In this document: piece by piece, positions 1-49,977 of the stretch
How positions within the stretch are numbered: the stretch's first letter is position 1
Layout of the letters: each line of letters begins with the position of its first letter
Source of the DNA: Ostreococcus lucimarinus
Taxonomy: Eukaryota
Length of the DNA stretch: 64,000 nt
Strand: one strand, 5' to 3'
NCBI GenBank assembly: GCA_000092065.1
Contig: CP000591.1
Made by a program: the position numbers and the translations under genes
Notes under the pieces: model-generated
Seen by the model: only the letters and a program-made list of their open reading frames with translations
The model's database searches: none
What the model was told of the DNA's origin: nothing

Positions 1-2173
1 TGACTGCGTCCTCGTGCGCGGCGATGATCGCCAAACAGTTTGCCTCCGCTTCTTGAAGAATCTGAACCATCTTGCGCTCGGCGTATTGATAGTGATCGGG
101 GACTACCTCTCTGATCGGACCTGCAATCGTCAACAGTTCGTCCAAGGGCATCAACTCTCCAGATTTAGACACCGCACCTTGCAAGCGCGCCACTCGTCTC
201 TCCGACTTGTTCAAATGCTTCGGGTCGTATGTGTACGTCGTCATCATGCCGGGCTGCCCCAAGCCAAAGTTTACGATCATATTTCGAAGCAAATCATTCG
301 CTTCGCAAACATCTTCCGAACCGCGAGTGCTCGCCTCTCCAAACAACACTTTTTCGCAGGAGCGGCCCGCGAGCAAAACTTGCACGCGCTCGCACATTCG
401 CGCGCGCGTAGGATATCGGTAATCCTCGTCACGCTTTCTCTGGATCAGCGTAATCGCTGGCTCGAAACCTCGCGGAATGATGGAAATCATCTCGATGTCT
501 TCGATGAGACCGTTGCTCTTATGGAGCAAGTTCTGGACCAGGGCGTGGCCGACTTCGTGCGCCGCGAGTTTGCGCGTCGTCACGCTTTCCTTGGGGTGTG
601 CTGTAAGACGAATGCCGCTCACGACGCGCTCAACGGCATCCAAGACGTCGTGCTCTTCGATCTGTTCACCCTGGCGTCGCACGCAGTGCACCGCGGCTTC
701 GTTGCAAATGTTTGCAATCTCGGCGCCCGACAAACCGGGAAGGTTCTGCGCCAATCGCTTGGTGTCAATTTCTGGGTTGCAGTTTCGCTTGGACAAGTGA
801 ATCTGCAAAATCTTAGCCCGTGCCTCGACGTTTGGAAGGCCGACGCGAACTTTACGATCGAATCGACCTGGCCGCAACAGCGCGGGATCGAGTAAATCGG
901 CTCGGTTTGTCGCGCCGATGAAGACGACGCCAGTGTCTGGCGTGAAACCATCCATCTCCGTGAGAAGCTGATTCAGCGTTTGTTCGTGCTCTTCCGTGCC
1001 ACGCGTGCCAGCAGCGGCGCGTTTCGTGCCTAACGCATCGATTTCGTCGACGAATATCAAGCACGGCGCGTTGATGCGCGCGCGTTTAAATAAATCTCTC
1101 ACTCGAGCCGCGCCGACGCCGACGATGATTTCAACAAACTCAGAGCCAGACATGGAGTAGAACGGCACTTTGGCTTCACCCGCGATCGCCTTCGCGATCA
1201 GCGTCTTACCAACGCCCGGGCCTCCTTCCATGAGCAAACCCTTGGGGGGCCTAGCGCCAACCTTGGCGAAACGCTCGGGTTCCTTTAAAAAGGCGACGAC
1301 TTCCTCCAAATCTTCTATGATGTTCTCCAACCCACCAACGTCTTCCAAAGTCACGTCCACCGTGCCGTCTCGCCTCGCACCCGCGCGGGACTGCGCAAAC
1401 TGCATCGCCTGGAACTGATCTTGCGGCACCGACGTCCTACGGACGATGCCCAAGTAAATCGAACCGATCATAAACGCCAAGCCGCCGACGGAGTACGCCA
1501 AAAACTCCATCCCACTGTACGACGACGGTCGCCATTTCTGATGATACGTGTACCACGTCCCGAGTCTATCGCATTTGTCCAACAGCGCGGCGTCCATCGT
1601 GTTGGTCAGCGTGTTGAGGTAGTACTGCTTCCCCTTCGACCCCTTCATGGTGACCAAGTAATACCTCGATCGCGGAATCTTTCGCAACCTCTCCGGTGGG
1701 AACCACCCAAACTGCGGCGCGTCCCACACCTGAAACGACTTCACCAGTCCTTTATCCACCGCCCGCACGAATTCTTGCATCGTCATCTCATCGTACGACT
1801 TCCAATTCGGCTCCTCGTCGATCGGCGCTCCCAAGCTCTGCGTGCTCACGTAGTCGCTCGTCCCCTTCACGTCCCCCTCCATCGGCCCTTTCTTCGCCAT
1901 TCTCCGCTTCGCCTTCTCACTGAACAGCTTATACTGCTCATCCTGCTCGCGCTGCATCTGCTGAAACTCCTCGTCCGTCATCCCTCGCGGTTTCACCAAC
2001 CCTCTCGCGCGCGTCCTCTCGCCTCGCCGTCCGCTCGCCTCCGCGTCCCGTCCTCGCCCTCTCGCGCGCACCACTCGCCTCGTCACCGTTCCCGCGCCCA
2101 CCGCGCGCGCGAACGCCCGTCCATCGTCGTCTTCACCGCGCGCGTCCCCGCCGCCGTCCCGCGTCGTCGCCAT
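1..2173 (-). CDS. FTSH: FtsH-family AAA+ zinc metalloprotease (C-terminus runs off the left edge of the window)
   Basis: Absent from the ORF track because there is no stop inside the window. My reverse-strand translation from the ATG (CAT at 2171-2173) stays open to position 2: MATTRDGGGDARGEDDDGRAF... It has one TM (MEFLAYSVGGLAFMIGSIYLGIV), Walker A GGPGVGKT (about 1203-1226), Walker B LIFVDEID, LLRPGRFD, and the zinc site HEVGHA (about 545-565). Confidence 0.9.
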   Translation of the reverse strand, partial: MATTRDGGGDARGEDDDGRAFARAVGAGTVTRRVVRARGRGRDAEASGRRGERTRARGLVKPRGMTDEEFQQMQREQDEQYKLFSEKAKRRMAKKGPMEGDVKGTSDYVSTQSLGAPIDEEPNWKSYDEMTMQEFVRAVDKGLVKSFQVWDAPQFGWFPPERLRKIPRSRYYLVTMKGSKGKQYYLNTLTNTMDAALLDKCDRLGTWYTYHQKWRPSSYSGMEFLAYSVGGLAFMIGSIYLGIVRRTSVPQDQFQAMQFAQSRAGARRDGTVDVTLEDVGGLENIIEDLEEVVAFLKEPERFAKVGARPPKGLLMEGGPGVGKTLIAKAIAGEAKVPFYSMSGSEFVEIIVGVGAARVRDLFKRARINAPCLIFVDEIDALGTKRAAAGTRGTEEHEQTLNQLLTEMDGFTPDTGVVFIGATNRADLLDPALLRPGRFDRKVRVGLPNVEARAKILQIHLSKRNCNPEIDTKRLAQNLPGLSGAEIANICNEAAVHCVRRQGEQIEEHDVLDAVERVVSGIRLTAHPKESVTTRKLAAHEVGHALVQNLLHKSNGLIEDIEMISIIPRGFEPAITLIQRKRDEDYRYPTRARMCERVQVLLAGRSCEKVLFGEASTRGSEDVCEANDLLRNMIVNFGLGQPGMMTTYTYDPKHLNKSERRVARLQGAVSKSGELMPLDELLTIAGPIREVVPDHYQYAERKMVQILQEAEANCLAIIAAHEDAV

Positions 2174-2395
2174 CGCGCCCACCGTCCGTCGCCGCCCTTC
2201 GCGCCCTGACCTACGTCCCGCGCCTTCGTTCGCGCGTCGCGCTCGATCGCATCGCGTCGCCGCCGCGCGCGGTCGCGCAGTCGCGCGCGCGCTCGACATC
2301 GCGCGCGTCGGATCGCTCGGCGCCGCGCGTCGCGCGTCGCGCCGCGGTGCGCGCGCGTCGATCGAATCCGCGCGAGGTTTTCGACGGCGCGATGT

Positions 2396-2461: not shown

Positions 2462-2696
2462 CGCGCGTCGTCGCGCGGCGTCGCCGACGCGCGCGGCGGA
2501 CGGCGGCGCGTCGAGACGACGGGCGCGATCGCGCGCGTGCGAACGTCGAGCGCGCGACGCGCGCGACGGCGCGGACGAACGATCGGATCGGAAAGGATTC
2601 GAATAGGACGTCGCGGACTTTGATTCGACGTGATTTGATTTGATTTCGAAACGGGACGGCGAGACAGACGACGCGCGCGACGAGGGCGCGGCGAGG

Positions 2697-4412
2697 ATGG
2701 ATTCGGTGACGTCGGTGTTTGGAAATTGGTTCTCGAGCGCGCGGGACGACGGGAGCGAGAGCGACGACGGGAGCGATGCGGCGGCGCGGGAGGCGGGATC
2801 AGAGAAGAGCGACGACGCGCGGGACGAGGACGGGGCGACGAGGGCGGACGAGGACGCGGAGGCGAGGGCGTTGCTGCCGCCGGCGACGACGCTGCATCCG
2901 TACGAGGACGTCAGACGATCGGTGGAGGGATTAGGGACGAGGAGACACGATCACGATTATCCGTCGGGGCTGACGAACGGGGGGAACACGTGCTTCGCGG
3001 CGTCGGCGTTGCAGTGCTTGCGACGGGCGACGCCGCTCACGGCGTGGTTCGACGGCGTGGAAAAGTTTCACGACGTCGCGCGGTGCGCGGAGACGAGGAA
3101 GTTTTGCGTGGTGTGCGAGTATTCGCAACATTTGGAACGCGCGATGGCGTCGAGGGACGCGCACAGCATAGGGAGGTTGACGAAGGACATTAGCAAGGTG
3201 GCGAGACAGTTTAGACGCGGGCGGCAGGAGGATTCGCACGAGTTCATCAACGCGCTGTTGGACGCGATGCACGTGATTTTTTTGAAGGATCTCGGAGGAG
3301 AGAAGAAGTACGATTTGCGCACGCGAGAGACGACGGTCATTTATCACGTCTTCGGTGGGTATACCCTGGGCACGGTGAAGTGCTTGGAGTGCGGGTACGT
3401 GAGCAAGAATTTTCAAAGCACGCTCGACATTCCGCTCGAGGTGACGGGAAAGATTGGCTCCGTCGAGGAGGCGCTTCGAGAAAACTTTTGCACGGAGGAA
3501 GTCCTCAGTGGTTCGAACAAGTACAAGTGCTCGAAGTGCAAGGCGTTGGTACGGGCGAAGAAGGGATCGAAAATCCACGTGTCGCCGAATATTTTAACCA
3601 TTCCTCTAAAACGGTACTCCACTGGACGGTTCAGCAAGATTACAAAGTACATCAAGTATCCGTCCAACTTTTCGCTGGCTGAGTTCATGAGCGATGATGC
3701 CCCGTATGAAGTCACGGCTCCAGAGTATGAGCTTTTCGGTGTATTGGTTCATCAAGACTTTTACGCCAGCGCGCACTCTGGACATTACGTGGCGTACGTA
3801 AAGTTGCGAGACGATTCCTGGGTGCTGTGCAACGATAGTCGCGTGTCGCCGTCTTCCGAAAAGGATGCGATGAAGCAAAAGGCGTACATATTGTTCTACG
3901 AGCGCGTGCACGCGAGAGGTGCACCACCATTGCGCCCGGCGGGATACTTGGACGAGCTCCGAGCGGCGCGCGACGCCGAACGTGCGGCGACGGCGATGAA
4001 GTGCGAAGACGCGGGGGAGGAACAGTTGACTTCTCGGTTCGATTCGATGAGTGTGAGCGCCACCGCGGTAGATACGGTGAGCGCTTCGTCGACGCGTCCT
4101 ACGAGATCTCCCGTCGTTGTCGCCGAGGAGGTCTCCGAGGAACCGTCAGTGCACATGGAAACGGTGAACGTCGAAAACGGTCGAGAGTTGCGCGTATCGG
4201 TCACTTTGCCTGGTTGTCGCAGCGCTCGCGATATCGAAGTCGAGCTCAGCATGGGGCAGCACGATGTGCCGTCATCGCTTATTATCAAGGCCCCAATGTT
4301 GTACGCGACGCCGGTGAAGGTTCACCTGCCGCCGAACGTGGAAGATCCCGTGAAGAGCTCGTTCGTGCGCAAGACGTCAGAGTATCGCGTGCGGTTTCCG
4401 GTTCGCGAGTGA
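2697..4412 (+). CDS. UBP: Ubiquitin carboxyl-terminal hydrolase (USP/UBP, peptidase C19)
   Basis: Track ORF 2640-4412 starts at TTG; the first ATG is at 2697 (MDSVTSVFGNWF). Cys box GLTNGGNTCFAASALQCL, His box SGHYVAYVKL..WVLCNDSRV, and an acidic low-complexity N-terminus. Confidence 0.9.
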   Translation: MDSVTSVFGNWFSSARDDGSESDDGSDAAAREAGSEKSDDARDEDGATRADEDAEARALLPPATTLHPYEDVRRSVEGLGTRRHDHDYPSGLTNGGNTCFAASALQCLRRATPLTAWFDGVEKFHDVARCAETRKFCVVCEYSQHLERAMASRDAHSIGRLTKDISKVARQFRRGRQEDSHEFINALLDAMHVIFLKDLGGEKKYDLRTRETTVIYHVFGGYTLGTVKCLECGYVSKNFQSTLDIPLEVTGKIGSVEEALRENFCTEEVLSGSNKYKCSKCKALVRAKKGSKIHVSPNILTIPLKRYSTGRFSKITKYIKYPSNFSLAEFMSDDAPYEVTAPEYELFGVLVHQDFYASAHSGHYVAYVKLRDDSWVLCNDSRVSPSSEKDAMKQKAYILFYERVHARGAPPLRPAGYLDELRAARDAERAATAMKCEDAGEEQLTSRFDSMSVSATAVDTVSASSTRPTRSPVVVAEEVSEEPSVHMETVNVENGRELRVSVTLPGCRSARDIEVELSMGQHDVPSSLIIKAPMLYATPVKVHLPPNVEDPVKSSFVRKTSEYRVRFPVRE

Positions 4413-6124: not shown

Positions 6125-8581
6125 TTACAATCCCTCGCGATTCTTCGCTTGGTCATCCTCTTCTAGCGCCACGAGCGTGGCGTCCACGAGTCTCTCGAGG
6201 ACTTGGGATAGACGCGCGATGCGCCCGCCTTGCTCCGCGTTCTCCTTGACGGCGCTCGGCAACGTCTCCACCGTTTCCGCGATTTTCGTCGCCAGCGAGC
6301 TGATTTTCGATTCTATGATGGTTCGAATCGCTTTGCGTTCGCGCTCGAACGACGCGCACTTGGCCTCGAGCTGTTCGCATCTCGCGCTGGCGTCGTTTCG
6401 GCGTTGGGCGGTGAGCGCTTCCAATCGCAAGCGCACGTTATCGGCTTCAATCTCTTGTAAGGAATCTCGCTGCTCGTTGTTTTGCGTCTCAAGATACGCG
6501 ACTTTCGCACGCAGAAGTTTCAACTCCGACATCGCGTCGTCGCTTTTCCCGTTACCCGATTCCGATTCGCTTTCGCTCCCGACCCATCCGCCGAGCGCGG
6601 CGCGAAGACCGCCGCTCAACTGCGCGTGGAGTTGCGTCTCCTTCACCGCCGCGCGCTTGATACCGAATAGCTCCGCCGTTTTCGCATCTAGAGCATCCTC
6701 GAGTAGAGCTTTCTGCTCTTCGCACGCGCGAACTTGATCTTGCAATGCGTCGATGCGTTCGTCGCGTTCGCGCAGTCGAGCCGTGAGGCCGAGCATGATG
6801 TCGCGCTGCTTCAACAACACTCCCTTGTACCGTTCGACCTCGCGCGTGGAGTCACCAGCCTCGGCGCGCTCGGCTTCGATGCTTTTAAGCTTTCGCTCGT
6901 ATTCCGCGCGTATCGCAGCCACGCTCGAGGGGTCGTCGCCGCCGAGCAATTGACTCTGCATCTCGGAGATGCGCTTTTCTAAATTTCTCTTCTCTTGCTT
7001 TTCGATGAGAAATTCTTGCGATCGCATTTCGAGTTCGGTGATCGCGCGCAGCTTATCCGCCTCTGCGCGGCGTCGTTGCTCGTCCACCTCGAGTAATCGA
7101 CGTTTATCCACTAAATCTTTCGTACGTGTGTCCAACTCGGTGCGCAACTGCCTGAGCTCGCGCTCGTACTTGCGCAACAGCGACTTTTGATCTAAATCCT
7201 CATTCAGCGTCGCCGTATTCTTAATCTCCTTCGCACGACTGGCGAATTTCAACGTCGACAGCGACTCCGCGAAAGCTTCGAGCGCGGGCGAAACCATGGC
7301 GATGACGGTGGTTATGCAGTTACCGCCGAGTGAATCTTCCAAAATGCGCGTCAATTTGGAATCACGATACGGAATGTGCGATCGACCTTTGCTATCCGTC
7401 AAGGCGCTGATGACGTTGCCGAGCGCGCTCAGGCTTTGATTAATCTTTTTACTCTCGTCCAGCCGTTTTCCCGTGGCCCCGGTTAACGACACGCGCTCAG
7501 ATCCCGCCAAATCAACCAAGTTAAGTTTACCGACGGTGATGCTCTGTCGCTGCGCCGGAGCGCCCTCACCCACGTCCACACCGTCCACAGGTTCGTCATC
7601 CTCGGTCGTGCTGTGTTCTATGATGATGGTGAATACGGCGTGCGATCGCGACGAGAGCTCGTTCATCTTCGTCGACCCCGTCGCTCGAAGTTGCGCCCCG
7701 CGCTCGAGCAAACCGTAAATTTCACTCGGCGTCCGCACGACCCATTCCGATTGACCTTCCACGAACACGCCGCGCTTCTTGTCCTCGCGAATGTTCAAAT
7801 TCGTTCTCTCGGGTTTCAACAAATCGCTCACCGTCTCGTTGTAAATCTGCAAGTAACTCACGCGCACGAGATACTTTGACCGCGCGTGCGAGTCCTTGGC
7901 GATGTAATCGAAGATGTCCTCAATCGCGCGCGGAATGATCCCCCTTTCGCGCCCATCCGTCACCGGCGCGTTCCCCGGCAACCCAAACCGCTGTTGTCCA
8001 TACGCCAACATCGTTCCTCGATCACCCTCCATCGTGTACGTCTTCCCCGTCCCCGTCTGTCCGTACGCCAACACCGTGGCGTTGTATCCTCGCAGCGCGT
8101 TCAGCGTCGCCGGCTTCGCGCTTCTCGCGTACACCTCCTCCTGCGTCGCCCTCTCGTCGTACACCGCGTCGAATCCAAACTCATACGTCCTCTGTCGTTC
8201 GTGCGCGCCGTCATCCGCGAACGTCCCTCCCTCCCCGTTCCCCGCGAGCGCTCGCTCGCCGCCCGCGCTCGCCGCGCACGCCTTCCCGCCGCGCGTCGCC
8301 GCCACCGCGCGTTGATACGCCCCTCGCCCCTCGCGCGTCTCTCGCCGCAGCGCGGGTCGCACGCGTATCATCACCTCCACGTTCGACGTCGACGTCGACG
8401 TCCCTCGCGCCGCGTCGTCGTCCCCCGTCGCGCGTCGGTTCGAACGCGCGGCGTCGGCATCCGCATCCGCATCCGCATCCGCATCCGCATCGTCGTCGTC
8501 GTCGTCGTCGCGCGCGTCGTCGTCGCGATTCCGATCTCGCGCGTCGTCGAGCGCGCGACGCTCGACGTCGAGGGCGTCCAT
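6125..8581 (-). CDS. Kinesin motor protein (N-terminal motor, long coiled-coil tail)
   Basis: P-loop GQTGTGKTYTM, switch I SSRSHAVFTI, switch II LVDLAGSE, neck and heptad-rich tail. The track ORF extends to 8947. I start at the ATG at 8581 (MDALDVERRALDD) because upstream of it lies a non-coding-looking tandem repeat. The (GCATCC)5 tract near 8458-8490 encodes DADADADA. Confidence 0.85.
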   Translation of the reverse strand: MDALDVERRALDDARDRNRDDDARDDDDDDDADADADADADADAARSNRRATGDDDAARGTSTSTSNVEVMIRVRPALRRETREGRGAYQRAVAATRGGKACAASAGGERALAGNGEGGTFADDGAHERQRTYEFGFDAVYDERATQEEVYARSAKPATLNALRGYNATVLAYGQTGTGKTYTMEGDRGTMLAYGQQRFGLPGNAPVTDGRERGIIPRAIEDIFDYIAKDSHARSKYLVRVSYLQIYNETVSDLLKPERTNLNIREDKKRGVFVEGQSEWVVRTPSEIYGLLERGAQLRATGSTKMNELSSRSHAVFTIIIEHSTTEDDEPVDGVDVGEGAPAQRQSITVGKLNLVDLAGSERVSLTGATGKRLDESKKINQSLSALGNVISALTDSKGRSHIPYRDSKLTRILEDSLGGNCITTVIAMVSPALEAFAESLSTLKFASRAKEIKNTATLNEDLDQKSLLRKYERELRQLRTELDTRTKDLVDKRRLLEVDEQRRRAEADKLRAITELEMRSQEFLIEKQEKRNLEKRISEMQSQLLGGDDPSSVAAIRAEYERKLKSIEAERAEAGDSTREVERYKGVLLKQRDIMLGLTARLRERDERIDALQDQVRACEEQKALLEDALDAKTAELFGIKRAAVKETQLHAQLSGGLRAALGGWVGSESESESGNGKSDDAMSELKLLRAKVAYLETQNNEQRDSLQEIEADNVRLRLEALTAQRRNDASARCEQLEAKCASFERERKAIRTIIESKISSLATKIAETVETLPSAVKENAEQGGRIARLSQVLERLVDATLVALEEDDQAKNREGL

Positions 8582-8626
8582 CGCGCGCGCGCCGCGCGGC
8601 GCCGTGCCGCTGTGCCGCGCGCGACG

Positions 8627-8908
8627 GCCGACCGACCGACCGACCGACCGACCGACTGGTGTACAAACAGTGACACGCGAAATAACCATCGCCGCGACGC
8701 CACTGATGGGAATCTTCACGTATCGAAGAGCCGACCGACCGACTGGTGTACAAACAGTGACACGCGAAATACCCATCGCCGCGACGCCACTGATGGGAAT
8801 CTTCACGTATCGAAGAGCCGACCGACCGACTGGTGTACAAACAGTGACACGCGAAATAACCATCGCCGCGACGCCACTGATGGGAATCTTCACGTAATGA
8901 AGAGCCGC
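8627..8908. repeat. (CCGA)6 followed by an 87-bp tandem repeat x3 in the kinesin/AsnRS divergent intergenic region
   Basis: Units begin at 8654, 8741 and 8828 (gactggtgtacaaacagtgacacgcgaaataaccatcgccgcgacgccactgatgggaatcttcacgtatcgaagagccgaccgacc). The differences I noticed are aataacc/aataccc and, in the last unit, gtatcg/gtaatg. Confidence 0.9.
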
Positions 8909-8945
8909 CGCCGGCACACCCCGACGCCGCGCGCGCGCGAGCGCC

Positions 8946-10637
8946 ATGGCGGACGCCCTTGCCTCGACGCTCGACGGCCTGACGCTCGACGGCGCGAGGC
9001 ACAGGTACTCGAAGATCTACGACCGCGTCCCGATCGAAAGCGTGCTCGCGACGGCGGAAAAAGACGCGATCGGACGGACGATCGTCGTCGGTGGCTGGGT
9101 GAAGACGGGACGCGAGGCGGAGCGAGGCGCGCTGCTGTTTCTCGCGGTGAACGACGGGAGCGGACCGGGAAACCTGCAGGTGGTGGTGAAATCCGAGACG
9201 TACGCCGAGCTGGGGGAGCTGAAGACGACGGGGACGAGCGTGGTGATCGAGGGCGAGCTGCGGGCGCCGCCGGAGAGCGCGAAGGGGCAGGCGATCGAGA
9301 TGCACGCGACGAGGGTGCTGATGGTCGGAAAGTGCGACGGCGCGACGTATCCGATCGCGAAGAAGAAGCAGACGCTGGAGTTCCTGCGGGAGAAGATTCA
9401 TCTGCGACCGAGGACGAACACGATCGCGAGCGTGGCGCGGGTGCGGAGCGCGCTCGCGTACGCGACGCATACGTTTTTTAACCAAAATGGGTTCTTGTAC
9501 GTGCACACGCCGTGCGTGACGCAGAGCGATTGCGAGGGAGCGGGAGAGATGTTTCAAGTGACGACGTTGCTGAGCGAGGCGGAGAAGCCGGAGGCGTTAG
9601 AGGCGACGGTGAAGCCGGAGGAGATTGAGGCAAAGCGCGCCGAGGTTTCCGCGTGCGGCGGAGAGATCAAGTCGATGAAGGAGAGTGGGGCGGATTCCAA
9701 GGAGGTGAAGAAGGCGGTGAAGACGTTAGATAAACTCAAGCAAGAGCTGTCGCAGATGGAATCGGCGGCGCGCAAGATTGGCGGGATTCAACGCGCCGAA
9801 GACGGTTCCATCGATTACTCCCGCGATTTCTTTGGCGGCAAGTCGTACTTGACCGTTTCCGGGCAGTTACAGGTGGAAACGTACGCGTGTGCGCTCTCTA
9901 ACGTGTACACTTTCGGTCCGACGTTCCGTGCGGAGAACTCGAACACCACCAGACACTTGGCTGAGTTCTGGATGATTGAACCCGAGCTCGCGTTTGCCGA
10001 CTTGAACGACGACATGCAGTGCGCGGAGGATTACGTCAGGTTCTGCTGCAACTACCTCCTCGAGAACTGCTACGGCGACTTGGAATTCTTTGCCAAGATG
10101 TACGACAGCACGTGCATCGATCGCGTGAAGGAAATTGCGACAACGCCGTTTGGTCGCGTCTCGTACACCGAAGCCATCGATCTCTTGGAAAAAGCCGTCG
10201 CCGACGGCAAGGAGTTCGTCTACCCAGTCTCTTGGGGTATCGACTTGGCCACCGAACACGAGCGCTGGCTCGCCGAGGAACACTTCAAGAAACCCGTGAT
10301 CGTTTACAACTACCCGAAGGACATCAAGGCTTTCTACATGCGCTTGAACGACGACAACAAAACCGTCGCCGCGATGGACGTCTTGGTGCCAAAGGTTGGC
10401 GAACTCATCGGCGGTAGTCAACGCGAGGAGCGATTGGACGTGTTGGAACGCCGAATGGTGGAATGTGACCTCGTGCCGGAAGAATATTCTTGGTACTTGG
10501 ACCTGCGTCGTTACGGCACCGTCACCCACGCCGGTTTCGGCCTCGGCTTTGAACGCCTGATTCTTTTGTGCACCGGGATGGAGAATATTCGCGACGTCAT
10601 TCCGTACCCGCGCTGGCCGAACAACTGCATTAGTTGA
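8946..10637 (+). CDS. NARS: Asparaginyl-tRNA synthetase (class IIb)
   Basis: ATG at 8946. OB-fold N-terminus, SDCEGAGEMFQVTTL, FFGGKSYLTVSGQL, motif 2 FRAENSNTTRHLAEFWMIEPE, motif 3 GFGLGFERLIL. An extra insertion of about 85 aa lies at about 9570-9830. Confidence 0.92.
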   Translation: MADALASTLDGLTLDGARHRYSKIYDRVPIESVLATAEKDAIGRTIVVGGWVKTGREAERGALLFLAVNDGSGPGNLQVVVKSETYAELGELKTTGTSVVIEGELRAPPESAKGQAIEMHATRVLMVGKCDGATYPIAKKKQTLEFLREKIHLRPRTNTIASVARVRSALAYATHTFFNQNGFLYVHTPCVTQSDCEGAGEMFQVTTLLSEAEKPEALEATVKPEEIEAKRAEVSACGGEIKSMKESGADSKEVKKAVKTLDKLKQELSQMESAARKIGGIQRAEDGSIDYSRDFFGGKSYLTVSGQLQVETYACALSNVYTFGPTFRAENSNTTRHLAEFWMIEPELAFADLNDDMQCAEDYVRFCCNYLLENCYGDLEFFAKMYDSTCIDRVKEIATTPFGRVSYTEAIDLLEKAVADGKEFVYPVSWGIDLATEHERWLAEEHFKKPVIVYNYPKDIKAFYMRLNDDNKTVAAMDVLVPKVGELIGGSQREERLDVLERRMVECDLVPEEYSWYLDLRRYGTVTHAGFGLGFERLILLCTGMENIRDVIPYPRWPNNCIS

Positions 10638-18908: not shown

Positions 18909-19247
18909 GAGCGCGCCTCCGTACGCGCGTCCGCCGTCCGCGGCGCGCTCGACGCCCGGCGCGTCCCAGTCCGCCGTCGCCGTCGCGGGCGCGTCCCTCC
19001 GAACACCATCGTGGCCCGTCTGCGATCGCGCGAAACCGCGGCGCGCGTCAGTCGGCGAACGCGCTCGCGGTTCGCGCGATCGGCGCGTTTTCGCGCGTTT
19101 TCGCGCGCGTCCTCGCGCGCGCGCACCCCGAGCAGCAGCGTCTCGCGCTCGCTGCGGTCGCTCGACGACATCGCGCGACGCGCGCGACACAGAGTGACGC
19201 CGCGCGCGCGGCGTCGAGATCCGCTCGGCGCGGCGACGACGGCGTCG

Positions 19248-19491
19248 ATGACGTCCGCGTCGATGGTATCGACGCTCGCGGCGCGCGCGAGAGCGAACGT
19301 CGCGCTCGCGGTCGTCGCGATCGCGATCGCACTCGCGTTGTTCCCGCTGCTCGCGCCGCTCGCGCTGGGCGGTTTCGTCGTCGCGCGCGCGGTGCGCAGG
19401 GACGCGCGCGAGGAAGAGGACGTTTCGGTGAAGCCCGTCGCGGGGACGGGCGGGGACGTCGCGGTGCGAGAGAGGGCGCGGGTGGAGGTTG

Positions 19492-19551
<60 letters not shown>

Positions 19552-22133
19552 CGGTGGCGCTCACGGGCTCGGCGGCGATGCTGGCGAAGATGCGGAAGAG
19601 CAGCGCGTTGACTGGAGAAAAACGCGCGACCGCGGCGCAGGGTGCGAGCACGAGCGCGAAGGATGGTGTGGATGAGACGGCGACGAACGCGAAAGCGACC
19701 CGAACGTTTATATTGCACGGCGGCGAAGCGGCGTCGCAAATCGCGAAGGATTTGGCCGCGCAGGCGGAGAAAGAGCACGGAATTGCGTTGAATGTGATGA
19801 CAATGGATGATTTCAGAGACGTAGAGTTCGATAAAGAACCCTGCGCGGTGGTTTTCGTGGTCGAGACGGTAGAGAACGCGCAGCCGGCGGAAGCTGCGGG
19901 ATCTTGCGTGCGCTTCTTCAATCGGAAACGTAAGGAAGGGACGAATCAGGCTATGCTGGCGGGGAAGATGTCATACGCGGTTTTAGGACTCGGTGATACA
20001 AACTTGTTACTCGATCGCCAGACGACGACGGCGAAAGATTGTAACCAGGCTGCGCAGACGTTGGATTCGGCGCTCGCCGCTCTCGGCGGCGCTCGAATCG
20101 TCCCCCGCGGCGAGGCAAACGACGCCGTGGGTTTGGACGAAGACGTTGTACCGTGGGCCAAGTTGCTTTTCCCAAAATTGTCTGAAGTTCACAAAGGGAT
20201 TGAGGCGAAAAAAAACGCAAAGCTATGCTTCTTGTACGGCTCGCAGACCGGTAACGCGACGGAAATTTGCAAAAATCTCGCCGCCGAGGCGAGCGAGAAG
20301 GGGTACCCCGTGGAGGTGTGCGCGATGAATGAGGTCGAGCCAGAAGATGTCATCAAACCTGGCGCTGTGATTACGTTCGTCGTATCCAGCACCGGCGACG
20401 GTGACGCTCCGGATAACTGCGACACATTCTTCACTCGCCTCAAGCGCAAGGCAAAGAAGGAAAAAGGCGAGGGCGCCATCGGCGTCCAGTACGCCGTCCT
20501 AGGACTGGGTGATCAAAACTACAGCGCGTTCATGGCTGTGCCGCGTCAGTTCTCGCAAACGATGGAGAACTTGGGCGCGAAGTGTTTCGCTAAGCGCGGT
20601 GAATGCGACGACACACTTGGTTTGTACGAACAAGTTGACGCATGGACGAGCACGTTTTGGTCTCATCTCGAAGTCGCTCGAGGAAACTCACACAAGTTGC
20701 GCGAGGGTGAGACAATCGTGGAAGACGCTAATGCCGCCACTGAAGCTCCAAAAGGCGATTCGAAGCCACCGCAAGCGGCTGCGCCGGCGAAGAAAGTCGA
20801 AGGCGTGCCACCACTACCAATCTGCCGATCTGAAGTGCAGTGGCTGCCGAAAACGACAGAAGTGGTTGCTAATCGCGTCGCGCCCGGTCCAGATTCCGAA
20901 GGTGCATACACCGTCTCCTCGCCGTACATGGCGACTATTCACAAGCGTGAGGTACTCACAAACTTGAAATCCGATCGGCGAGTGTTGCACATGGAGTTTG
21001 ATCTCGGATCAAGTGGGATCTCTTACAAGCCGGGAGATTCCATTGGCATCGTACCGCAGAACGACGCCGAGCTGGTTCGAGCCATCGTCGATCGGCTGGG
21101 TCTCGATCAAGCCGCCATTTTCACGCTGAATTGGAAGAAAGGTGACACGAATGAACACGCGACTCATCCGTTGCCGCATATTCACACCCCGTGCACGGTA
21201 AAGAGTGTGTTCACGAATTATATCGACATCACGGGATGTCCGCGTAAGTCGCTCCTTCGCGTTCTCGCCGAACACTGCGGCAACGCGGAGGAAAAAGACG
21301 CCCTCTTGCACCTTTCATCGCGTGGTGGTCGAGCAGAATACGAAACACAGATTCGCGCGCAGTCACCGACGCTATTGACGCTCTTGAACAATTATCCGAG
21401 TTGTTGTCCTCCGTTAGCCGAGCTTTTAGATGCCCTCTCTCCGCTCGCGCCGAGACTGTATTCGATCACATGCGCGCCCGAGGTGGCACCAACAACGCCG
21501 TCGGTTGCCTTCAGTGTCGTGCGGTTCCAGGTACCCAGCGGTGAACATCGCCTCGGCGTCGCCACGAACTGGCTCGACGAGATATCGGTCGACGACAAGT
21601 GCGAGCACAAAGTCCCGGTGTACATCAAGCCAAGCTTGAAGTTCGGCCTGCCCGAAGACTCGAGCGCGCCGCTAGTGATGATTGGTCCGGGTACCGGCGT
21701 CGCACCATTCCGCGGTTTCCTCCAGTCCAGACGCGCTAAAGCACAAAAAGGCGGTCGATTATCTGAAGCTATGTTGTTCTTCGGCTGTCGCAAGGCAGAT
21801 GAGGACTTCCTGTACGAAGCCGACTGGAAGAGTTTCACCGCCGATGGCTCGCTGACAAAGCTCGTCTGCGCCTTTAGCCGCGAGACCGCAGAAAAGGTAT
21901 ACGTGCAGCACAAAATTGAAGAGCACGCCACCGAAGTCGCGCGCTTAATCTCTGAGGGCGCTTACGTCATGGTATGCGGCGACGGCGCGCACATGGCCAA
22001 GGATGTCCACGCCGCCCTCGTCCGCGTCGTCGCTCAAGCCGGCGTCTGCGGCGTCTCTGACGTCAAAGCCGCCGAGGCTCTCCTCGCCGACTTCACTAAA
22101 TCCGGTCGTTACGTCCGTGATATTTGGAGCTAA
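19248..22133 (+). CDS. Membrane-anchored diflavin reductase (NADPH-cytochrome P450 reductase / methionine synthase reductase family) with two tandem flavodoxin-like modules
   Basis: Track ORF 19011 starts at GTG; the first ATG is at 19248 (MTSASMVSTLAAR). TM VALAVVAIAIALALFPLLAPLALGGFVV, poly-Thr16, a degenerate flavodoxin-like module (TFILHGGEAASQIA...YAVLGLGDTN), a canonical FMN module (LCFLYGSQTGNATE...YAVLGLGDQNY), FAD/NADPH domains (RLYSITC, GPGTGVAPFRGF, VMVCGDGAHMAKDV), and the C-terminus GRYVRDIWS. Confidence 0.88.
19503..19550 (+). repeat. (ACG)16 microsatellite encoding poly-Thr inside the reductase CDS
   Basis: An uninterrupted acg run, in frame with the CDS, translated as T16. 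Confidence 0.95.
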
Positions 22134-22356
22134 CGCACGCGCGTTCGTATTGTTTAGATTTTAATTTCTCATTTCATTTCATTTCATTCCACTCCACTCT
22201 CGTTCCGTTTCACCAAACTCCTGCGGGCGAGTTGGGTGTTACGCGTACACGCGCGCCCCTCAGACCCGCGCGCGCTTCGCCGCGGGCTAAAATGCGCCGT
22301 CGTGATCGAGGAAACGACCCTCCGATGGTGTCGTCGACGTTCGTCGTCGTCCTCGT
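20619..22356 (+). repeat. Segmental duplication, copy 1 (1,738 bp)
   Basis: Matches 27064-28801 at a constant offset of +6445 with no indel that I could find. It covers the last 1,515 bp of the reductase CDS, the 158-bp spacer and the first 22 codons of the GH1 gene. Confidence 0.95.
22292..22356 (+). pseudogene. 5' ghost of the GH1 beta-glucosidase gene (first 22 codons only)
   Basis: MRRRDRGNDPPMVSSTFVVVLV is identical to 28737-28801. After 22356 the sequence diverges (ASKFRAC, then stop). Confidence 0.85.
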
Positions 22357-26896: not shown

Positions 26897-27065
26897 CTCG
26901 CACCCCGTGCACTGCCAGCGTCGCCCGAGGCCACGCTCCGCGTGAAAGTCGGCGCATCGCGTGCGAGCGCTGCCGCATAACTCACACCCCGTGTGCCGCC
27001 ATTATCGTCGCCTGAGGCCACGCCCCGCGAGAAAGTCGGCGGATCGCGTGCGAGTGCCGTCGCGG
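26897..27065. repeat. Imperfect 84-bp tandem repeat x2 abutting the right breakpoint of the insert
   Basis: 26897-26980 and 26981-27065 are about 80% similar by eye (ctcRcaccccgtg...gtcgccYgaggccacgcYccgcgWgaaagtcggcgSatcgcgtgcgag...). Confidence 0.75.
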
Positions 27066-28578
27066 TTTGTACGAACAAGTTGACGCATGGACGAGCACGT
27101 TTTGGTCTCATCTCGAAGTCGCTCGAGGAAACTCACACAAGTTGCGCGAGGGTGAGACAATTGTGGAAGACGCTAATGCCGCCACTGAAGCTCCAAAAGG
27201 CGATTCGAAGCCACCGCAAGCGGCTGCGCCGGCGAAGAAAGTCGAAGGCGTGCCACCACTACCAATCTGCCGATCTGAAGTGCAGTGGCTGCCGAAAACG
27301 ACAGAAGTGGTTGCTAATCGCGTCGCGCCCGGTCCAGATTCCGAAGGTGCATACACCGTCTCCTCGCCGTACATGGCGACTATTCACAAGCGTGAGGTAC
27401 TCACAAACTTGAAATCCGATCGGCGAGTGTTGCACATGGAGTTTGATCTCGGATCAAGTGGGATCTCTTACAAGCCGGGAGATTCCATTGGCATCGTACC
27501 GCAGAACGACGCCGAGCTGGTTCGAGCCATCGTCGATCGGCTGGGTCTCGATCAAGCCGCCATTTTCACGCTGAATTGGAAGAAAGGTGACACGAATGAA
27601 CACGCGACTCATCCGTTGCCGCATATTCACACCCCGTGCACGGTAAAGAGTGTGTTCACGAATTATATCGACATCACGGGATGTCCGCGTAAGTCGCTCC
27701 TTCGCGTTCTCGCCGAACACTGCGGCAACGCGGAGGAAAAAGACGCCCTCTTGCACCTTTCATCGCGTGGTGGTCGAGCAGAATACGAAACACAGATTCG
27801 CGCGCAGTCACCGACGCTATTGACGCTCTTGAACAATTATCCGAGTTGTTGTCCTCCGTTAGCCGAGCTTTTAGATGCCCTCTCTCCGCTCGCGCCGAGA
27901 CTGTATTCGATCACATGCGCGCCCGAGGTGGCACCAACAACGCCGTCGGTTGCCTTCAGTGTCGTGCGGTTCCAGGTACCCAGCGGTGAACATCGCCTCG
28001 GCGTCGCCACGAACTGGCTCGACGAGATATCGGTCGACGACAAGTGCGAGCACAAAGTCCCGGTGTACATCAAGCCAAGCTTGAAGTTCGGCCTGCCCGA
28101 AGACTCGAGCGCGCCGCTAGTGATGATTGGTCCGGGTACCGGCGTCGCACCATGCCGCGGTTTCCTCCAGTCCAGACGCGCTAAAGCACAAAAAGGCGGT
28201 CGATTATCTGAAGCTATGTTGTTCTTCGGCTGTCGCAAGGCAGATGAGGACTTCCTGTACGAAGCCGACTGGAAGAGTTTCACCGCCGATGGCTCGCTGA
28301 CAAAGCTCGTCTGCGCCTTTAGCCGCGAGACCGCAGAAAAGGTATACGTGCAGCACAAAATTGAAGAGCACGCCACCGAAGTCGCGCGCTTAATCTCTGA
28401 GGGCGCTTACGTCATGGTATGCGGCGACGGCGCGCACATGGCCAAGGATGTCCACGCCGCCCTCGTCCGCGTCGTCGCTCAAGCCGGCGTCTGCGGCGTC
28501 TCTGACGTCAAAGCCGCCGAGGCTCTCCTCGCCGACTTCACTAAATCCGGTCGTTACGTCCGTGATATTTGGAGCTAA
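27064..28578 (+). pseudogene. 3' ghost of the diflavin reductase gene (FAD/NADPH half only, no flavodoxin module, no in-frame ATG at its 5' end)
   Basis: Track ORF 27067-28578 starts at TTG. An in-frame stop lies at 27013-15 and the first ATG codon is only at PYMATIHK. It carries GVAPCRGF where the full gene has the conserved GVAPFRGF. Confidence 0.7.
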
Positions 28579-28801
28579 CGCACGCGCGTTCGTATTGTTT
28601 AGATTTTAATTTCTCATTTCATTTCATTTCATTCCACTCCACTCTCGTTCCGTTTCACCAAACTCCTGCGGGCGAGTTGGGTGTTACGCGTACACGCGCG
28701 CCCCTCAGACCCGCGCGCGCTTCGCCGCGGGCTAAAATGCGCCGTCGTGATCGAGGAAACGACCCTCCGATGGTGTCGTCGACGTTCGTCGTCGTCCTCG
28801 T
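27064..28801 (+). repeat. Segmental duplication, copy 2 (1,738 bp)
   Basis: See copy 1. The differences I found are T27162 versus C20717 (synonymous Ile) and G28154 versus T21709 (Phe to Cys). Confidence 0.95.
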
Positions 28802-45756: not shown

Positions 45757-45896
45757 CCGTAGATGGCCTCCAACACGTGCGCCGGCACCGCGGTTCCGCC
45801 TCGCGCCGTCGCGGGCGCGCGCGTCTCGGCGTCGCGCGCCGACATCGTCGCGAAGTGTCGCGGCGTCCCCGCCGGGACACCGCGCCGCGACGCCAT
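45483..45896 (-). CDS. Small hypothetical protein with poly-Thr13 and a C-terminal (KET)3
   Basis: The C-terminal half looks like genuine coding sequence (DESLKTWWRTYSERKNDEEEEHVADSLLYDYRHLPR). It includes (GTC)13 at about 45717-45755 and the 9-bp repeat tttgtctcc x3 at 45487-45513. Start is 45896 or 45845. Confidence 0.4.
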
Positions 45897-47022
45897 GACG
45901 CGCGCGCAGGCGTCGATCGGCGTCGATCGCGCCGTCGCGCGCGCGCGCGCGACGACGCGAACGCCGCGGTGCGCGCGCGCGGCGTTCGCGTCGCGCTCGG
46001 ACGACGCGCCGTGCGTCGTCGACGACGAAGACGCCGAGGCGAAGCGAATAAAACAGCGCGCGCACCGAAAACGGAACCGCGCGCGGTGCAGGACCCGCGC
46101 GAACGAGCGCGTGGACGCGTTGCTCGAGAAGTTTCGCGCGCTGCGACCGCTCGAACGCGCGAACGACGATGGATCGTGGGAGACGGTGTACGCGGAGGAG
46201 GAGGAAGACCGGGACGACGGCGTCGACTGGGACGGGCTGCCGCCGGGCGCGGACCCGTTCGGGACGAATAAGAAGGGTGGACGAGAGCGAGGGATGCGGA
46301 AGCGGAATCAAGTGATGACGTTCGTGAAACACTTGCGAGCGCTACTTTCGCTGCGAGGGCGAAGGGAGATAAAGAGGTGCGTCGATTTTGGATGCGGTAC
46401 GGGGAACGTTTTGATGACGTGCGCGGCGACGTTTCCGGAAATCGACTTCGTCGGCGTCGATTTGAACGCGACGAGCATTGAGATTTTAAACTCGAGGATT
46501 CGGAAATCGGGGTTGACAAACGTCAGCGCGGTGGTCGGATTGATCGAAGACGGCGATACGTTCGGGGCGGACTGCGCGTTGGCGCTGCACGTGTGCGGGA
46601 GCGCAACGGATCGAGTGTTAAACAGCGCGGTGCGAGCGAGAATCCCGTTCGTCATCGCGCCTTGTTGCGTGGGCAAAGTTCAAGAGGGTGGGATGCGAAG
46701 CTTGAATCGCATGCGTAACGATTTGATTTCGCTCGATAAAATAGAAGACATCGAGCGGCCGAGGTCGAGGCTGATGCGAGCCGCGGGTTTCGATTTCGAA
46801 GCGTACATGTCTGCCGCGACTTTGGCCGATTGGAGCGGGCACCAGGGCGTGGATCCGAGCGATCCGAACGAGCCTCTCGCCGCGCTTCCGAGACGCGCGA
46901 AGAGCGCCATCGAGGCGGATCGTGGGGAGTTTGCACGAGAGCACGCTTACGACGTGACGTTGCACAAGATGCCCGCGCAAAGCGGCATTCGCGATGACGT
47001 CTTGGTCGGGATCCCACTTTGA
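45895..47022 (+). CDS. Class I SAM-dependent methyltransferase (Methyltransf_32/METTL25-like)
   Basis: VDFGCGTGNVLMTCA (SAM motif I), GVDLN, ALHVCGSATD...IPFVIAPCCVGK. Start is ATG 45895 (MTRAQASIG) or 45763. Confidence 0.7.
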   Translation: MTRAQASIGVDRAVARARATTRTPRCARAAFASRSDDAPCVVDDEDAEAKRIKQRAHRKRNRARCRTRANERVDALLEKFRALRPLERANDDGSWETVYAEEEEDRDDGVDWDGLPPGADPFGTNKKGGRERGMRKRNQVMTFVKHLRALLSLRGRREIKRCVDFGCGTGNVLMTCAATFPEIDFVGVDLNATSIEILNSRIRKSGLTNVSAVVGLIEDGDTFGADCALALHVCGSATDRVLNSAVRARIPFVIAPCCVGKVQEGGMRSLNRMRNDLISLDKIEDIERPRSRLMRAAGFDFEAYMSAATLADWSGHQGVDPSDPNEPLAALPRRAKSAIEADRGEFAREHAYDVTLHKMPAQSGIRDDVLVGIPL

Positions 47023-47181
47023 GCGCTCGCGTGTATTCTTTGTCTAATTGTTTGTCTATTGTTTCTATAGCTAGTCTACGTTGTCATGATTCTTGGTCGG
47101 GATCCCACTTTGAGCGCTCGCGTGTATTCTTTGTCTAATTGTTTGTCTATTGTTTCTATAGCTAGTCTACGTTGTCATGAT
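47000..47181. repeat. Perfect 91-bp tandem duplication spanning the convergent 3' ends of the methyltransferase and pseudouridine synthase genes
   Basis: 47000-47090 and 47091-47181 are identical by eye. Each copy contains the last 23 nt of the methyltransferase CDS including TGA, an AT-rich spacer (ttgtctaattgtttgtctattgtttctatag), and the tcatgat that supplies the pseudouridine synthase stop. Confidence 0.95.
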
Positions 47182-48079
47182 GACTCATCAGTCATCGCCT
47201 CGAGCGTCGACCGCAGCAGCGGTTGATCGTCAAACCAGGCGCCCGAATCTTTCGCCAACGCGCTCGGAAAGTGCCGCTCGAACGCCTCGAGATCCCACGC
47301 CTCGCCCTCATCTGGGCTACATATTATCTGAATCGCCGGTCCCAGGCCTAAAGATTCGGGAATGCGTATCGCGCACGCGTGCAAGTAGCATCGTTCCGCG
47401 ACGGCCCCCGAATACACGTCGTCGCCCAACAGCGGCGCGCCGAGCGATTTCGCGCACACTCGCAACTGATGCGTCTTCCCAGTCAGCGGTCGAAATATGA
47501 ACATTCGTCGCCCTTTCGCTCCGAAGCTCACGAATTTCGTCACCGCCGGATTATCTTTCGTGTTCGTCAGTTTGTACGCCTTTCGCCGCGCTCGCGCCAT
47601 GTCCCCCGTCACCGTCCCCATCTTCTTCTTCGGCTTTTTCCCCGAAATCCCGACGTAATACTTGACGATCGCCCGCGTCGCGAACCCATCGCTCAGTTTC
47701 TTCGCCGCGTCCGCCGTCTTCGCGAACACTAGCGTCCCGCTCGTGCCCTTGTCCAACCTGTGCACGGCGCGAAGGCGCTCTTCGCGCGCGTCGCGACTCG
47801 CGCGCAGCCGCGCCAGCGCCCCAGGTTCGAATTCGCTGTGAAACGACACCCCCGGCGGTTTATTCACGATCACCACCGCGTCGTTTTCGTACAGCACGCG
47901 CGGCGTCTTCGCGTTTTCGCGCGTTGTCCCGCTCGAGGTCGTTACCTCGTCGTCGTCGTCGTCGTCGTCGCGCGCGAGCGCGCGCGCGCGCCGCGGCGCG
48001 CCGACCGCGCGCGACGGTCCAACGAACCCTCGACGATGGACCCGCGCGGCGCGCGCGGCGCGGCGCGGCCCCGCGACGG

Positions 48080-48118
<39 letters not shown>

Positions 48119-48119
48119 T
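47175..48119 (-). CDS. RluA-family pseudouridine synthase
   Basis: VIVNKPPGVSFHS, catalytic VHRLDKGTSGTLVFAKT, KYYVGISG, HQLRVCAKSLGAPLLGDDVY. Poly-Thr and poly-Asp N-terminus. Start is ATG 48119 (MATTTTT) or 48230, which would overlap the SNM1 start. Confidence 0.85.
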
Positions 48120-48189
48120 CGCAACGCGCGCGTCTGACGCCAGTTCGCGCCGCGTCGTCGAGTCGTCTCGACGCGCGGCGCGCGCGCCG

Positions 48190-49977
48190 ATGGCGTCGCA
48201 AACGGGCGCGATCAAGCGACTCGCGAGCAAGGCGTTTCGAGGCGTGAACGTGGACGGATTCGCGTTCCAATCGCCCGACGTGCGATGCTACGTGCTGACG
48301 CACTTTCACGCGGATCATTACTGCGGCCTGAGCGGCTCGTTCGGTAAGGACGGCGATGAGGCGAAGATATACTGCTCTGAAATAACCGCGCGATTGGTGG
48401 TGGAATTCCTGGGCGTGAAGCGCGAGCGCGTGGTCGGGTGCGAGCTGGGACGGGGGACGACGCTGCGAGGCGCCGGGACGCGCGGGGACGACGTGGAGGC
48501 GACGTTCGTGGACGCGAATCATTGCCCGGGCGCGTGTTTGGTGTTTTTTAGAAATAAAATAACGGGGGAGACGCTGTTGCATACCGGAGATTTTCGAGCG
48601 GCGGCGCGCGTGCGGAACGATGGGACGCTGAGAGAGTTGTTGACGACGTGTCGGGACGGATCGGTGGATGAGGTGATGCTGGATACGACGTATTGCGAAA
48701 AGAAGTGGACGTTTCCCGATCAAGACGTGGTGCTGAATAAGATGAGACAGATCGCGCGGGATGAACTCGCGCGAGAACCGCGGACGCTGTTCTTGTGTGG
48801 GTCGTATTCGATCGGGAAGGAGCGGGCGATTCAAGCCGTGTGTCAGGGGGCGCAGAGTCGAGCGAGCGTCACGGCGAGACGAAAGAAATCGCTCGAATTG
48901 AGCGGGTGGTGGCGCGATGATGCGTTTGTGTGCGAAGACGATGACGCCGAAGAAGCCGCACGATGCCAAGTGCGCGTGTGTGGCCTCGGAAAAGGCTCAA
49001 ATCATCGCGCGATGATGGAAATTATGGCAAAGGAGGCACCGCGATGGCGCGCCGCCGTCGCGTTTTCGCCCACCGGCTGGAGTTATACGAAGAAAATGGA
49101 CGAAGACGGGTTTAACGTGAACCCCTGGATAGAAAACGAAGGACGCACGCGCACGTATGCGATTCCGTACAGCGAGCATTCGAGCTACACCGAGTTGCGG
49201 GAATTTATAAAATTCTTAAAGCCGAAGAAAATCACCCCGACGGTGAACGCGATCACGCCCAAGGATAGAGAAAAGTTGGTGAACAAACACTTTTTGGACT
49301 TGGTGGATTTGAAGCAGGACGTCAATAGGTTGGACTATTACTTCAAAAACAGCGCGTCGTCGATGTTGCGGGCGAAGAAGCAGAAAAAGACGGAGAATGT
49401 CGTCGTAATCATTGATAGCGAAGACGAACGAGACGACGACGTTAAAGTGGAGGCGGAAATCATCTCTGCTCTCGACGGGGACGTCGAAACCGTTCGAAGA
49501 CAGCGCGAGATGTGGAATCAAATAGGTCGCGTGGAGACAAAAAAGCCGCCGAAACCGCTGGAACCTTTCCCTCTCGAGTGCATCGCCGTCGTGCGAAACG
49601 GCGAGTACGACCAGTTTCGTTCTCGAGCGCACGTCGAACAACGACTCAAAGAGCTCGGCGCGACGATCATGTCCCGCGTGACGCCCAACGTCACGCACAT
49701 AATCGTTCCGAACCGAGGTGAGCTCGCGAACGAGGCCAATCGCCTGAGCGCGCTTCGCGAAATGGACGAGTACAAGAACCATCCCACTGCGCTTCGCGTC
49801 ACCGAGGCTTGGTTGATGCGCCACGTGCGCGCGCGCGCCAATGACGTCGCCCCCTCACACAGCGAGGCCGCCGTCGCCGCGTTCGAGGCGAAGAAGCGCG
49901 AAGAAAAACTCGCTCGCCTCGCCGACGCCAAGCGAAAGCGCGACGAGAAGAAGACATTAGCATTAGAAACGCGTTAG
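48190..49977 (+). CDS. SNM1: SNM1/PSO2-family DNA cross-link repair nuclease (metallo-beta-lactamase + DRMBL) with a C-terminal BRCT-like domain
   Basis: ATG at 48190. VLTHFHADHYCGL, VDANHCPGA, TGDFR, YSEHSSYTEL. BRCT-like tail: CIAVVRNGEYDQF...ELGATIMSRVTPNVTHIIVPN. Confidence 0.85.
   Translation: MASQTGAIKRLASKAFRGVNVDGFAFQSPDVRCYVLTHFHADHYCGLSGSFGKDGDEAKIYCSEITARLVVEFLGVKRERVVGCELGRGTTLRGAGTRGDDVEATFVDANHCPGACLVFFRNKITGETLLHTGDFRAAARVRNDGTLRELLTTCRDGSVDEVMLDTTYCEKKWTFPDQDVVLNKMRQIARDELAREPRTLFLCGSYSIGKERAIQAVCQGAQSRASVTARRKKSLELSGWWRDDAFVCEDDDAEEAARCQVRVCGLGKGSNHRAMMEIMAKEAPRWRAAVAFSPTGWSYTKKMDEDGFNVNPWIENEGRTRTYAIPYSEHSSYTELREFIKFLKPKKITPTVNAITPKDREKLVNKHFLDLVDLKQDVNRLDYYFKNSASSMLRAKKQKKTENVVVIIDSEDERDDDVKVEAEIISALDGDVETVRRQREMWNQIGRVETKKPPKPLEPFPLECIAVVRNGEYDQFRSRAHVEQRLKELGATIMSRVTPNVTHIIVPNRGELANEANRLSALREMDEYKNHPTALRVTEAWLMRHVRARANDVAPSHSEAAVAAFEAKKREEKLARLADAKRKRDEKKTLALETR

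Follow-up and report, generated by a model that had tools for sequence, protein, structure and literature searches.

A probable young minisatellite of variable copy number in the spacer shared by the kinesin and AsnRS genes of Ostreococcus lucimarinus

The divergent genes for a kinesin and for the asparaginyl-tRNA synthetase (AsnRS) of the green picoalga Ostreococcus lucimarinus are separated by a short spacer that carries, in the reference genome, three head-to-tail copies of an 87-bp unit. The array was examined within a stretch of 64,000 nucleotides of contig CP000591.1 (assembly GCA_000092065.1; hereafter referred to as the window) and in the corresponding regions of related genomes and metagenome contigs. 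It is best understood, at a probability of roughly 0.8, as a young, non-coding, locus-specific minisatellite (VNTR), the copy number of which varies within the species. The coordinates of the array, its sequence elements and the flanking genes are given in Table 1.

The array scores 507 in TRF, more than any other tandem repeat in the window, with a period of 87, 3.0 copies at positions 8644-8907, a match rate of 97% and no indels; together with the matching of the individual units, this bears out the near-perfect threefold repeat described in the first-pass annotation. The unique part of the unit, 75 nt in length, occurs at 8656-8730, 8743-8817 and 8830-8904 with 0, 1 and 2 mismatches, respectively, and no further copy of it was found in the window (0 matches in 100 shuffles); the substitutions that distinguish the units are listed in Table 1. 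The first 12 nt of each 87-bp unit are identical to the last three CCGA repeats of the adjoining microsatellite, which had earlier been recorded as (CCGA)6 and is indeed present, but with a higher repeat number (x7.2 in TRF). Head-to-tail copies of a unit within the range of 10-100 bp are characteristic of minisatellites, and the array is placed between the transcription units, inside a spacer for which the length of 364 bp and the two bordering start codons (8946 for AsnRS and 8581 for kinesin) had been correctly reported. The unit, as also remarked earlier, is less GC-rich than its neighbours: the GC content of its unique 75 nt is 0.52 and that of all 87 nt 0.55, as against about 0.60 for the kinesin and AsnRS genes.

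Table 1. Features of the kinesin/AsnRS spacer and of the flanking genes (positions in the window)
Feature	Position	Strand	Basis or remark
Kinesin (kinesin-2/KIF3-like) CDS, MDALDVERR...	6125..8581	-	Conserved ATG 8581; Pfam
GC-rich stretch beside kinesin ATG, probably kinesin 5' leader	8582..8627	.	Near-identical in sister lineage
(CCGA)7 microsatellite	8628..8655	.	TRF x7.2, 8628-8656
Unit 1 of 87-bp array	8644..8730	.	TRF, unit matching
Unit 2, A>C at 8772	8731..8817	.	Unit matching
Unit 3, TC (T>A, C>T) to AT at 8897-8898, creating ATG at 8897	8818..8904	.	Unit matching
AAATAACCA, sole AT-rich patch of unit, candidate TATA-like element	8680..8688, 8767-8775, 8854-8862	.	Conserved in sister lineage
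CCACTGATGGGA block, bears plus-strand ATG of unit	8700..8711, 8787-8798, 8874-8885	.	Identical in sister lineage
Quasi-palindrome CTTCACGTATCGAAG, ACGT core (variant CTTCACGTAATGAAG at 8888-8902)	8714..8728, 8801-8815	.	Haplotype comparison
GC-rich stretch beside AsnRS ATG, probably AsnRS 5' leader	8905..8945	+	Tara sequence header
AsnRS CDS	8946..10637	+	Exact match to XP_001420326.1 (O. lucimarinus CCE9901); Pfam tRNA-synt_2, tRNA_anti-codon

Natural variation in copy number provides the most direct evidence on the nature of the array. Hundreds of contigs from metagenomes and cultures encode a near-identical AsnRS, and 25 of them were taken with their upstream regions; four more contigs were added by a DNA scan, and removal of the five that represent a sister lineage (L033-L037, including GCA_014466335.1) from these 29 left 24 independent contigs of the O. 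lucimarinus type. A single unit is present in 12 of the 24 (L002, L003, L006, L008, L015, L016, L017, L024-L027 and L031), with spacers of 190-198 bp, and two intact units are present in ten (L001, L004, L005, L007, L009, L010, L023 and L028-L030), with spacers of 275-281 bp. The other two contigs are incomplete, L032 being interrupted by a scaffold gap and L014, which has at least two units, by the contig end. Three units were observed in the reference only, as compared with these 24 contigs. Three of the two-unit contigs (L005, L009 and L010) are of chromosome scale (550-608 kb), and the haplotype differs from one to the next; 12 distinct spacer haplotypes were distinguished overall, among which n in (CCGA)n ranges from 7 to 9. 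The comparison of copy number proposed in the first-pass annotation has therefore yielded haplotypes with one, two and three copies at a single syntenic locus, which is the defining property of a VNTR. The one- and the two-copy alleles are both common across the samples, a pattern that is also compatible with balancing or local selection.

Assemblies of short reads may collapse tandem repeats. Since the k values used (119-141) exceed the unit length and the tails of the units differ, such collapse is unlikely to lie behind the low copy counts, though it is possible for individual contigs. Logan contigs encoding the exact reference AsnRS protein break off within unit 3, 79 nt before the ATG, because an assembler working at k=31 stops at near-identical tandem copies.

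The sister lineage, the AsnRS of which diverges from the reference by 8% at fourfold sites, has a single diverged orthologous copy at the same position of the spacer, reading (CCGA)4-CCGGTGCTCGCGAACAGTCGGACGTAAAATAACCACCGCCGACATCCCACTGATGGGACTCGCGCGCGTATCGAAGAG-CCGCCGCCG. From this it follows that the unit belongs to the original spacer and that a single copy is the ancestral state. The earlier proposal that the near-identity of the copies reflects recent expansion, or else concerted evolution, is borne out in so far as the copies are young. About a quarter of the positions differ between the unit and the sister copy, as read off the alignment with no formal count, and since this divergence exceeds that at synonymous sites, the unit as a whole is not under strong constraint. 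The blocks AAATAACCA, CCACTGATGGGA and CGTATCGAAGAGCCGCCGCCG are retained in the sister lineage, from which it appears that part of the unit may be constrained. Tracts of CCGACCGA are also present in the spacers of the sister lineage and of some more distant clades. The distant clades, including that of O. mediterraneus, keep the gene order Sec16 – small ORF – AsnRS <> kinesin – TPR, and their spacers (about 215-450 bp) could not be aligned with the unit; in the comparison with L018-L022 and L038-L047 a short (CCGA)n-CYGGTG-like trace was the only match, with no deep footprint.

An unrelated repeat of 119 bp x2.1, with 86-87% identity between the copies, was observed in the orthologous kinesin/AsnRS spacer of L022 (3672-3917) and L047, which belong to a clade with a kinesin 78% identical. 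Within the genus, at least two tandem duplications have therefore taken place in the kinesin/AsnRS spacer.

The junctions of the duplicated alleles indicate how the array probably arose. With breakpoints marked by a slash, the single-copy allele is bounded as ...(CCGA)n/CTGG...GAAGAG/CCGCCGCCGG, the junction in duplicated alleles reads GAAGAG-CCG-ACCGACCGA-CTGG, and the flanks with microhomology are GAAGAG/CCG-ACCGACCGA and GAAGAG/CCG-CCGCCGG. The breakpoints thus share CCG within the microsatellite, a configuration that slippage or unequal exchange at microhomology would produce. In the O. lucimarinus lineage, an ancestral single-copy segment of ~75 bp would have been duplicated head-to-tail along with 12 nt of the (CCGA)n beside it; in this first duplication, the flanking CCG/CCGA microhomology probably gave rise to replication slippage or to unequal exchange. 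Later gains and losses would be due to unequal exchange between the 87-bp units, and the copy number would since have drifted among one, two and three. Judged by the junction sequence, the array does not differ in kind from other short tandem duplications mediated by microhomology, with which it has in common the shared CCG in (CCGA)n and perfect or near-perfect copies.

Other duplications were identified in the window. A perfect duplication of 91 bp x2 (100% identity) lies at 47000-47181 between the convergent ORFs 45763..47022 (+) and 47175..48230 (-), its first copy apparently including the stop codon of the plus-strand ORF, and a perfect duplication of 35 bp x1.9 (TGGTCCGTGTGTTTCATTAATGAGTCTCGCCGTGC) lies at 2395-2461, in the gap between the ORFs 1421..2209 and 2640..4412. 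These two further duplications of complex intergenic sequence, of which the 91-bp one lies outside promoters, speak for a general mutational process rather than for a function tied to promoters. The window also contains a direct repeat of 1,738 bp that is 99.9% identical (20619-22356 and 27064-28801, the copies being 6,445 bp apart). The repeated sequence comprises the FAD_binding_1 and NAD_binding_1 half of a diflavin reductase ORF of 1040 aa (19011..22133); the ORF of the second copy (27067..28578) is without the flavodoxin domain. The repeat has originated very recently, through duplication of part of the gene or through gene conversion.

The most variable part of the unit is the quasi-palindrome near its 3' end. 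The CACGTA core and the CTTC-ACGTATC-GAAG arrangement pointed out in the first-pass annotation are both present (8714-8728), and mutations of the unit are concentrated in this element, with six tail variants among the haplotypes: TTCACGTATCG, TTCACGTAATG (reference unit 3), TTCACGTATTG, CAATACGTATTG, CATACGTATTG and a 6-bp deletion (L010). The commonest terminal tail, CAATACGTATTG, is a perfect 12-bp palindrome; in the last unit of L001-L031 (equivalent of 8888-8902) it is found in most wild haplotypes, the others having TTCACGTATTG or TTCACGTATCG. The sister lineage reads GCGCGTAT at the ACGT element. Template switching causes 'correction' mutations of quasi-palindromes (Ripley-type), and the pattern of the tails suggests that in this element a CpG transition is followed by correction through template switching. 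The step from TTCACGTATTG to CAATACGTATTG resembles Ripley-type correction in that it would perfect the palindrome by several simultaneous changes in one arm; it differs in being read from a comparison of alleles, its direction being an assumption.

Two functional suggestions made earlier for this part of the unit were not sustained. With regard to the G-box-like core, CACGTA is only half of a G-box and belongs to the most variable part of the unit; the canonical CACGTG is absent, the reference units having CACGTA and the common wild allele TACGTA. The likeness to plant-type ACGT-core bZIP elements (G-box CACGTG, A-box TACGTA) thus consists of CACGTA in the reference unit and of a TACGTA core in the common wild CAATACGTATTG; one haplotype has lost the putative ACGT site altogether. 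The small stem-loops fare no better, since the units with their leaders, folded on both strands and as single-stranded DNA, gave z values of -0.3 to -1.35 against dinucleotide shuffles, and neither the folding energy nor Rfam points to a structured RNA or hairpin. Some other candidate elements were compared with consensus sequences and set aside: an E2F-like site (TTTCGCGT, minus strand) is imperfect by eye and is not conserved in the sister lineage, the MSA element (AACGG) is absent, and the resemblances to the plant snRNA USE (TCCCACATCG vs TCCCATCAG) and to C/D-box snoRNA motifs are imperfect by eye.

The position of the array raises the question of a role in transcription. The spacer of the one-unit haplotypes is only ~190 bp and the unit must therefore overlap the shared promoter, of which it would hold the core, including the sole AT-rich, TATA-like patch AAATAA/TTATTT. 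Each unit has one ATG per strand, and as the 8880 ATG of the last unit is out of the AsnRS frame, the AsnRS transcript probably begins downstream of 8880, the likely start being at the 3' end of the last unit. For a near-identical AsnRS sequence from Tara, the ORF is placed at nt 49 by the source header, which weakly indicates a leader of at least 48 nt from the equivalent of 8898. On this reading the unit would be the ancestral segment of core promoter and leader, of which the additional copies would be spares. Each extra copy would set the two genes 87 bp further apart and add spare promoter sequence. In the sequences compared, one copy is common in nature and the unit evolves faster than synonymous sites, and for these reasons the extra copies are not needed for promoter function. 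Their effect on expression is most likely small or none, which is taken as the default assumption, and a neutral or mildly modulatory promoter VNTR is the best reading.

It is conceivable, though unlikely, that the unit is instead a selected and multiplied cis-regulatory module, in which an ACGT-core bZIP-type site and the TATA-like patch are combined and the copy number tunes AsnRS and/or kinesin; to the same low degree, the polymorphism of one, two and three copies would be an expression polymorphism kept by selection. The location of the unit within a very short bidirectional spacer, of which it provides the sole AT-rich patch, the conservation of some of its blocks in the sister lineage, the high frequency of both the one- and the two-copy alleles, and the 119-bp duplication that arose independently in the orthologous spacer of L022 and L047 are all in keeping with such a module. 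Tandem repeats in yeast promoters, moreover, can alter expression, according to the summary given in PMC3887541 (Vinces et al. 2009, cited therein). Against this, one copy is evidently sufficient, the unit differs from the sister copy at about a quarter of its positions as against 8% at the fourfold sites of AsnRS, and the putative ACGT site is its least conserved part among the haplotypes. Young duplications of a like kind are present in a non-promoter spacer, and the unit has no sub-motif in common with other promoters of the window: among its 9- to 12-mers, only GC-rich low-complexity words recur in the rest of the window, and there is therefore no promoter motif common to the other spacers.

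Regulatory VNTRs are known from the promoters of human INS and MAOA. The array resembles these and the yeast examples in being a head-to-tail promoter repeat with polymorphic copy number and near-identical units. It differs from them in that the unit is long (87 bp) and complex, is present in one to three copies only and lies in a 190-bp bidirectional spacer; the Ostreococcus unit probably includes the core promoter rather than an upstream low-complexity tract. A search of the literature on Ostreococcus promoters, transcription starts and tandem repeats found nothing specific to the kinesin/AsnRS locus.

A bolder version, which is less likely still, takes the 75-bp unit as a complete compact bidirectional core promoter and the reference array as three stacked bidirectional promoters. 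The AAATAA/TTATTT patch would then be shared by both directions, with the kinesin and AsnRS starts ~25-30 nt to its left and right, respectively. Firing of the distal copies would give long-leader AsnRS mRNAs with upstream ATGs, and, in the frame of the reference, kinesin mRNAs in which the in-frame ATGs 8689, 8776 and 8863 add one to three 29-aa repeats. The copy number would in that case be a natural, possibly selected, polymorphism of expression and isoform, and the 119-bp duplication would be convergent.

That the array is part of the kinesin protein is highly improbable. The first-pass annotation had noted that the ORF track fuses the repeat to the kinesin; this reading was reproduced, the ORF 6125..8947(-) running through the array as a 29-aa x3 peptide (SALRYVKIPISGVAAMVISRVTVCTPVGR). 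Translation of the kinesin from ATG 8947, or from an ATG within a unit, would accordingly give it a threefold 29-aa repeat at the N-terminus. The frame is open in the reference from 8947 to 8581, 87 is divisible by three, and gene callers applied to metagenomes often extend the kinesin into the unit (for example P0016). As had been stated earlier, the spacer is open in several frames, three of the six being stop-free across it, because the unit is stop-free, its length is a multiple of three and the DNA is GC-rich. Among the haplotypes, spacer lengths modulo 3 are 0, 1 and 2, such that the frame of the upstream 'extension' of the kinesin changes from one to another, and it is gone in L015, which has no upstream in-frame ATG. 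In the sister lineage the in-unit ATG is GTG, and the gene begins at the equivalent of 8581, as do several gene calls. An ATG at 8947 would moreover share nucleotides with the opposite-strand start codon of AsnRS and place the kinesin promoter and leader within the AsnRS gene.

The composition of the array also argues against a coding repeat. Its GC1/2/3 values in the kinesin frame are 0.59/0.56/0.52, whereas those of the kinesin and AsnRS are 0.64/0.45/0.72 and 0.57/0.41/0.81, respectively; the array thus has no GC3 periodicity, unlike either gene. The 29-aa repeat was found at none of the kinesin orthologue N-termini compared; these have 25-100 low-complexity residues ahead of the motor motif, and the starts of the orthologues and of the sister lineage coincide with ATG 8581, from which the Pfam Kinesin motor is numbered at aa 73-453. 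The reference kinesin model XP_001420495.1 is a partial one of 416 aa, and the reference annotation is therefore uninformative on the start codon; the exact 818-aa and 940-aa kinesin models had no match in the protein collection. Frame, peptide and composition thus fail alike to show the signature of a coding tandem repeat. By these marks in its sequence the array is non-coding, and the earlier suggestion that it is intergenic, with the kinesin fusion an artefact of open frames, is upheld.

Variable repeats are also present in the undisputed N-terminus of the kinesin, where (GCATCC)5.8 and (TCG)13 at 8451-8525 encode an acidic poly-Asp/Ala tract; their copy numbers vary among the metagenome haplotypes, with kinesin lengths of 815-818 aa. 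According to the source annotations of its homologues, this kinesin is closest to kinesin-2 (KIF3/17, the intraflagellar-transport type), although Ostreococcus is not known to have a flagellum.

A dispersed or mobile repeat (MITE-like or of a satellite family) that landed in the spacer, raised as an alternative in the first-pass annotation, is as improbable as a coding repeat. The breaking of short-read Logan contigs within the array might suggest a dispersed sequence, but is accounted for by tandem copies at k=31. The unit was found at one locus in the window, and a 20-mer from its core matched four metagenome contigs, all at the kinesin/AsnRS locus, and no viral contigs. The orthologous single copy of the sister lineage indicates vertical descent, and the ends of the duplicated segment have the 3-nt CCG microhomology only, with no terminal inverted repeats or target-site duplication in the sequences read.

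Least probable of all is an array of small non-coding RNA genes (snoRNA-, miRNA- or tRNA-like): tandem arrays of such genes exist in plants and algae, but here the folding is like that of shuffles, many haplotypes are single-copy, ARAGORN found no tRNA, and Rfam, run at a permissive threshold over 8300-9100, gave in the array only mir-341 (15 bits, gathering score 90) and BTH_s19 (10.7 bits, gathering score 153), neither of them close to its gathering score.

The kinesin/AsnRS array is thus a promoter VNTR in a picoeukaryote, real, well supported and of an ordinary kind, and is neither a protein repeat nor a mobile element. For annotation, the kinesin begins at ATG 8581 and its extended ORF across the array is artefactual, and the breaks of short-read assemblies at this spacer are explained by the array. 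One, two or three copies of 87 bp, together with (CCGA)7-9 and the hypervariable palindrome, provide a marker of a size suited to PCR for distinguishing O. lucimarinus haplotypes in cultures and metagenomes. If copy number were to affect the expression of the essential tRNA synthetase or of the kinesin, which is hypothetical, the locus would offer a tractable case of regulatory variation in a minimal eukaryotic genome.
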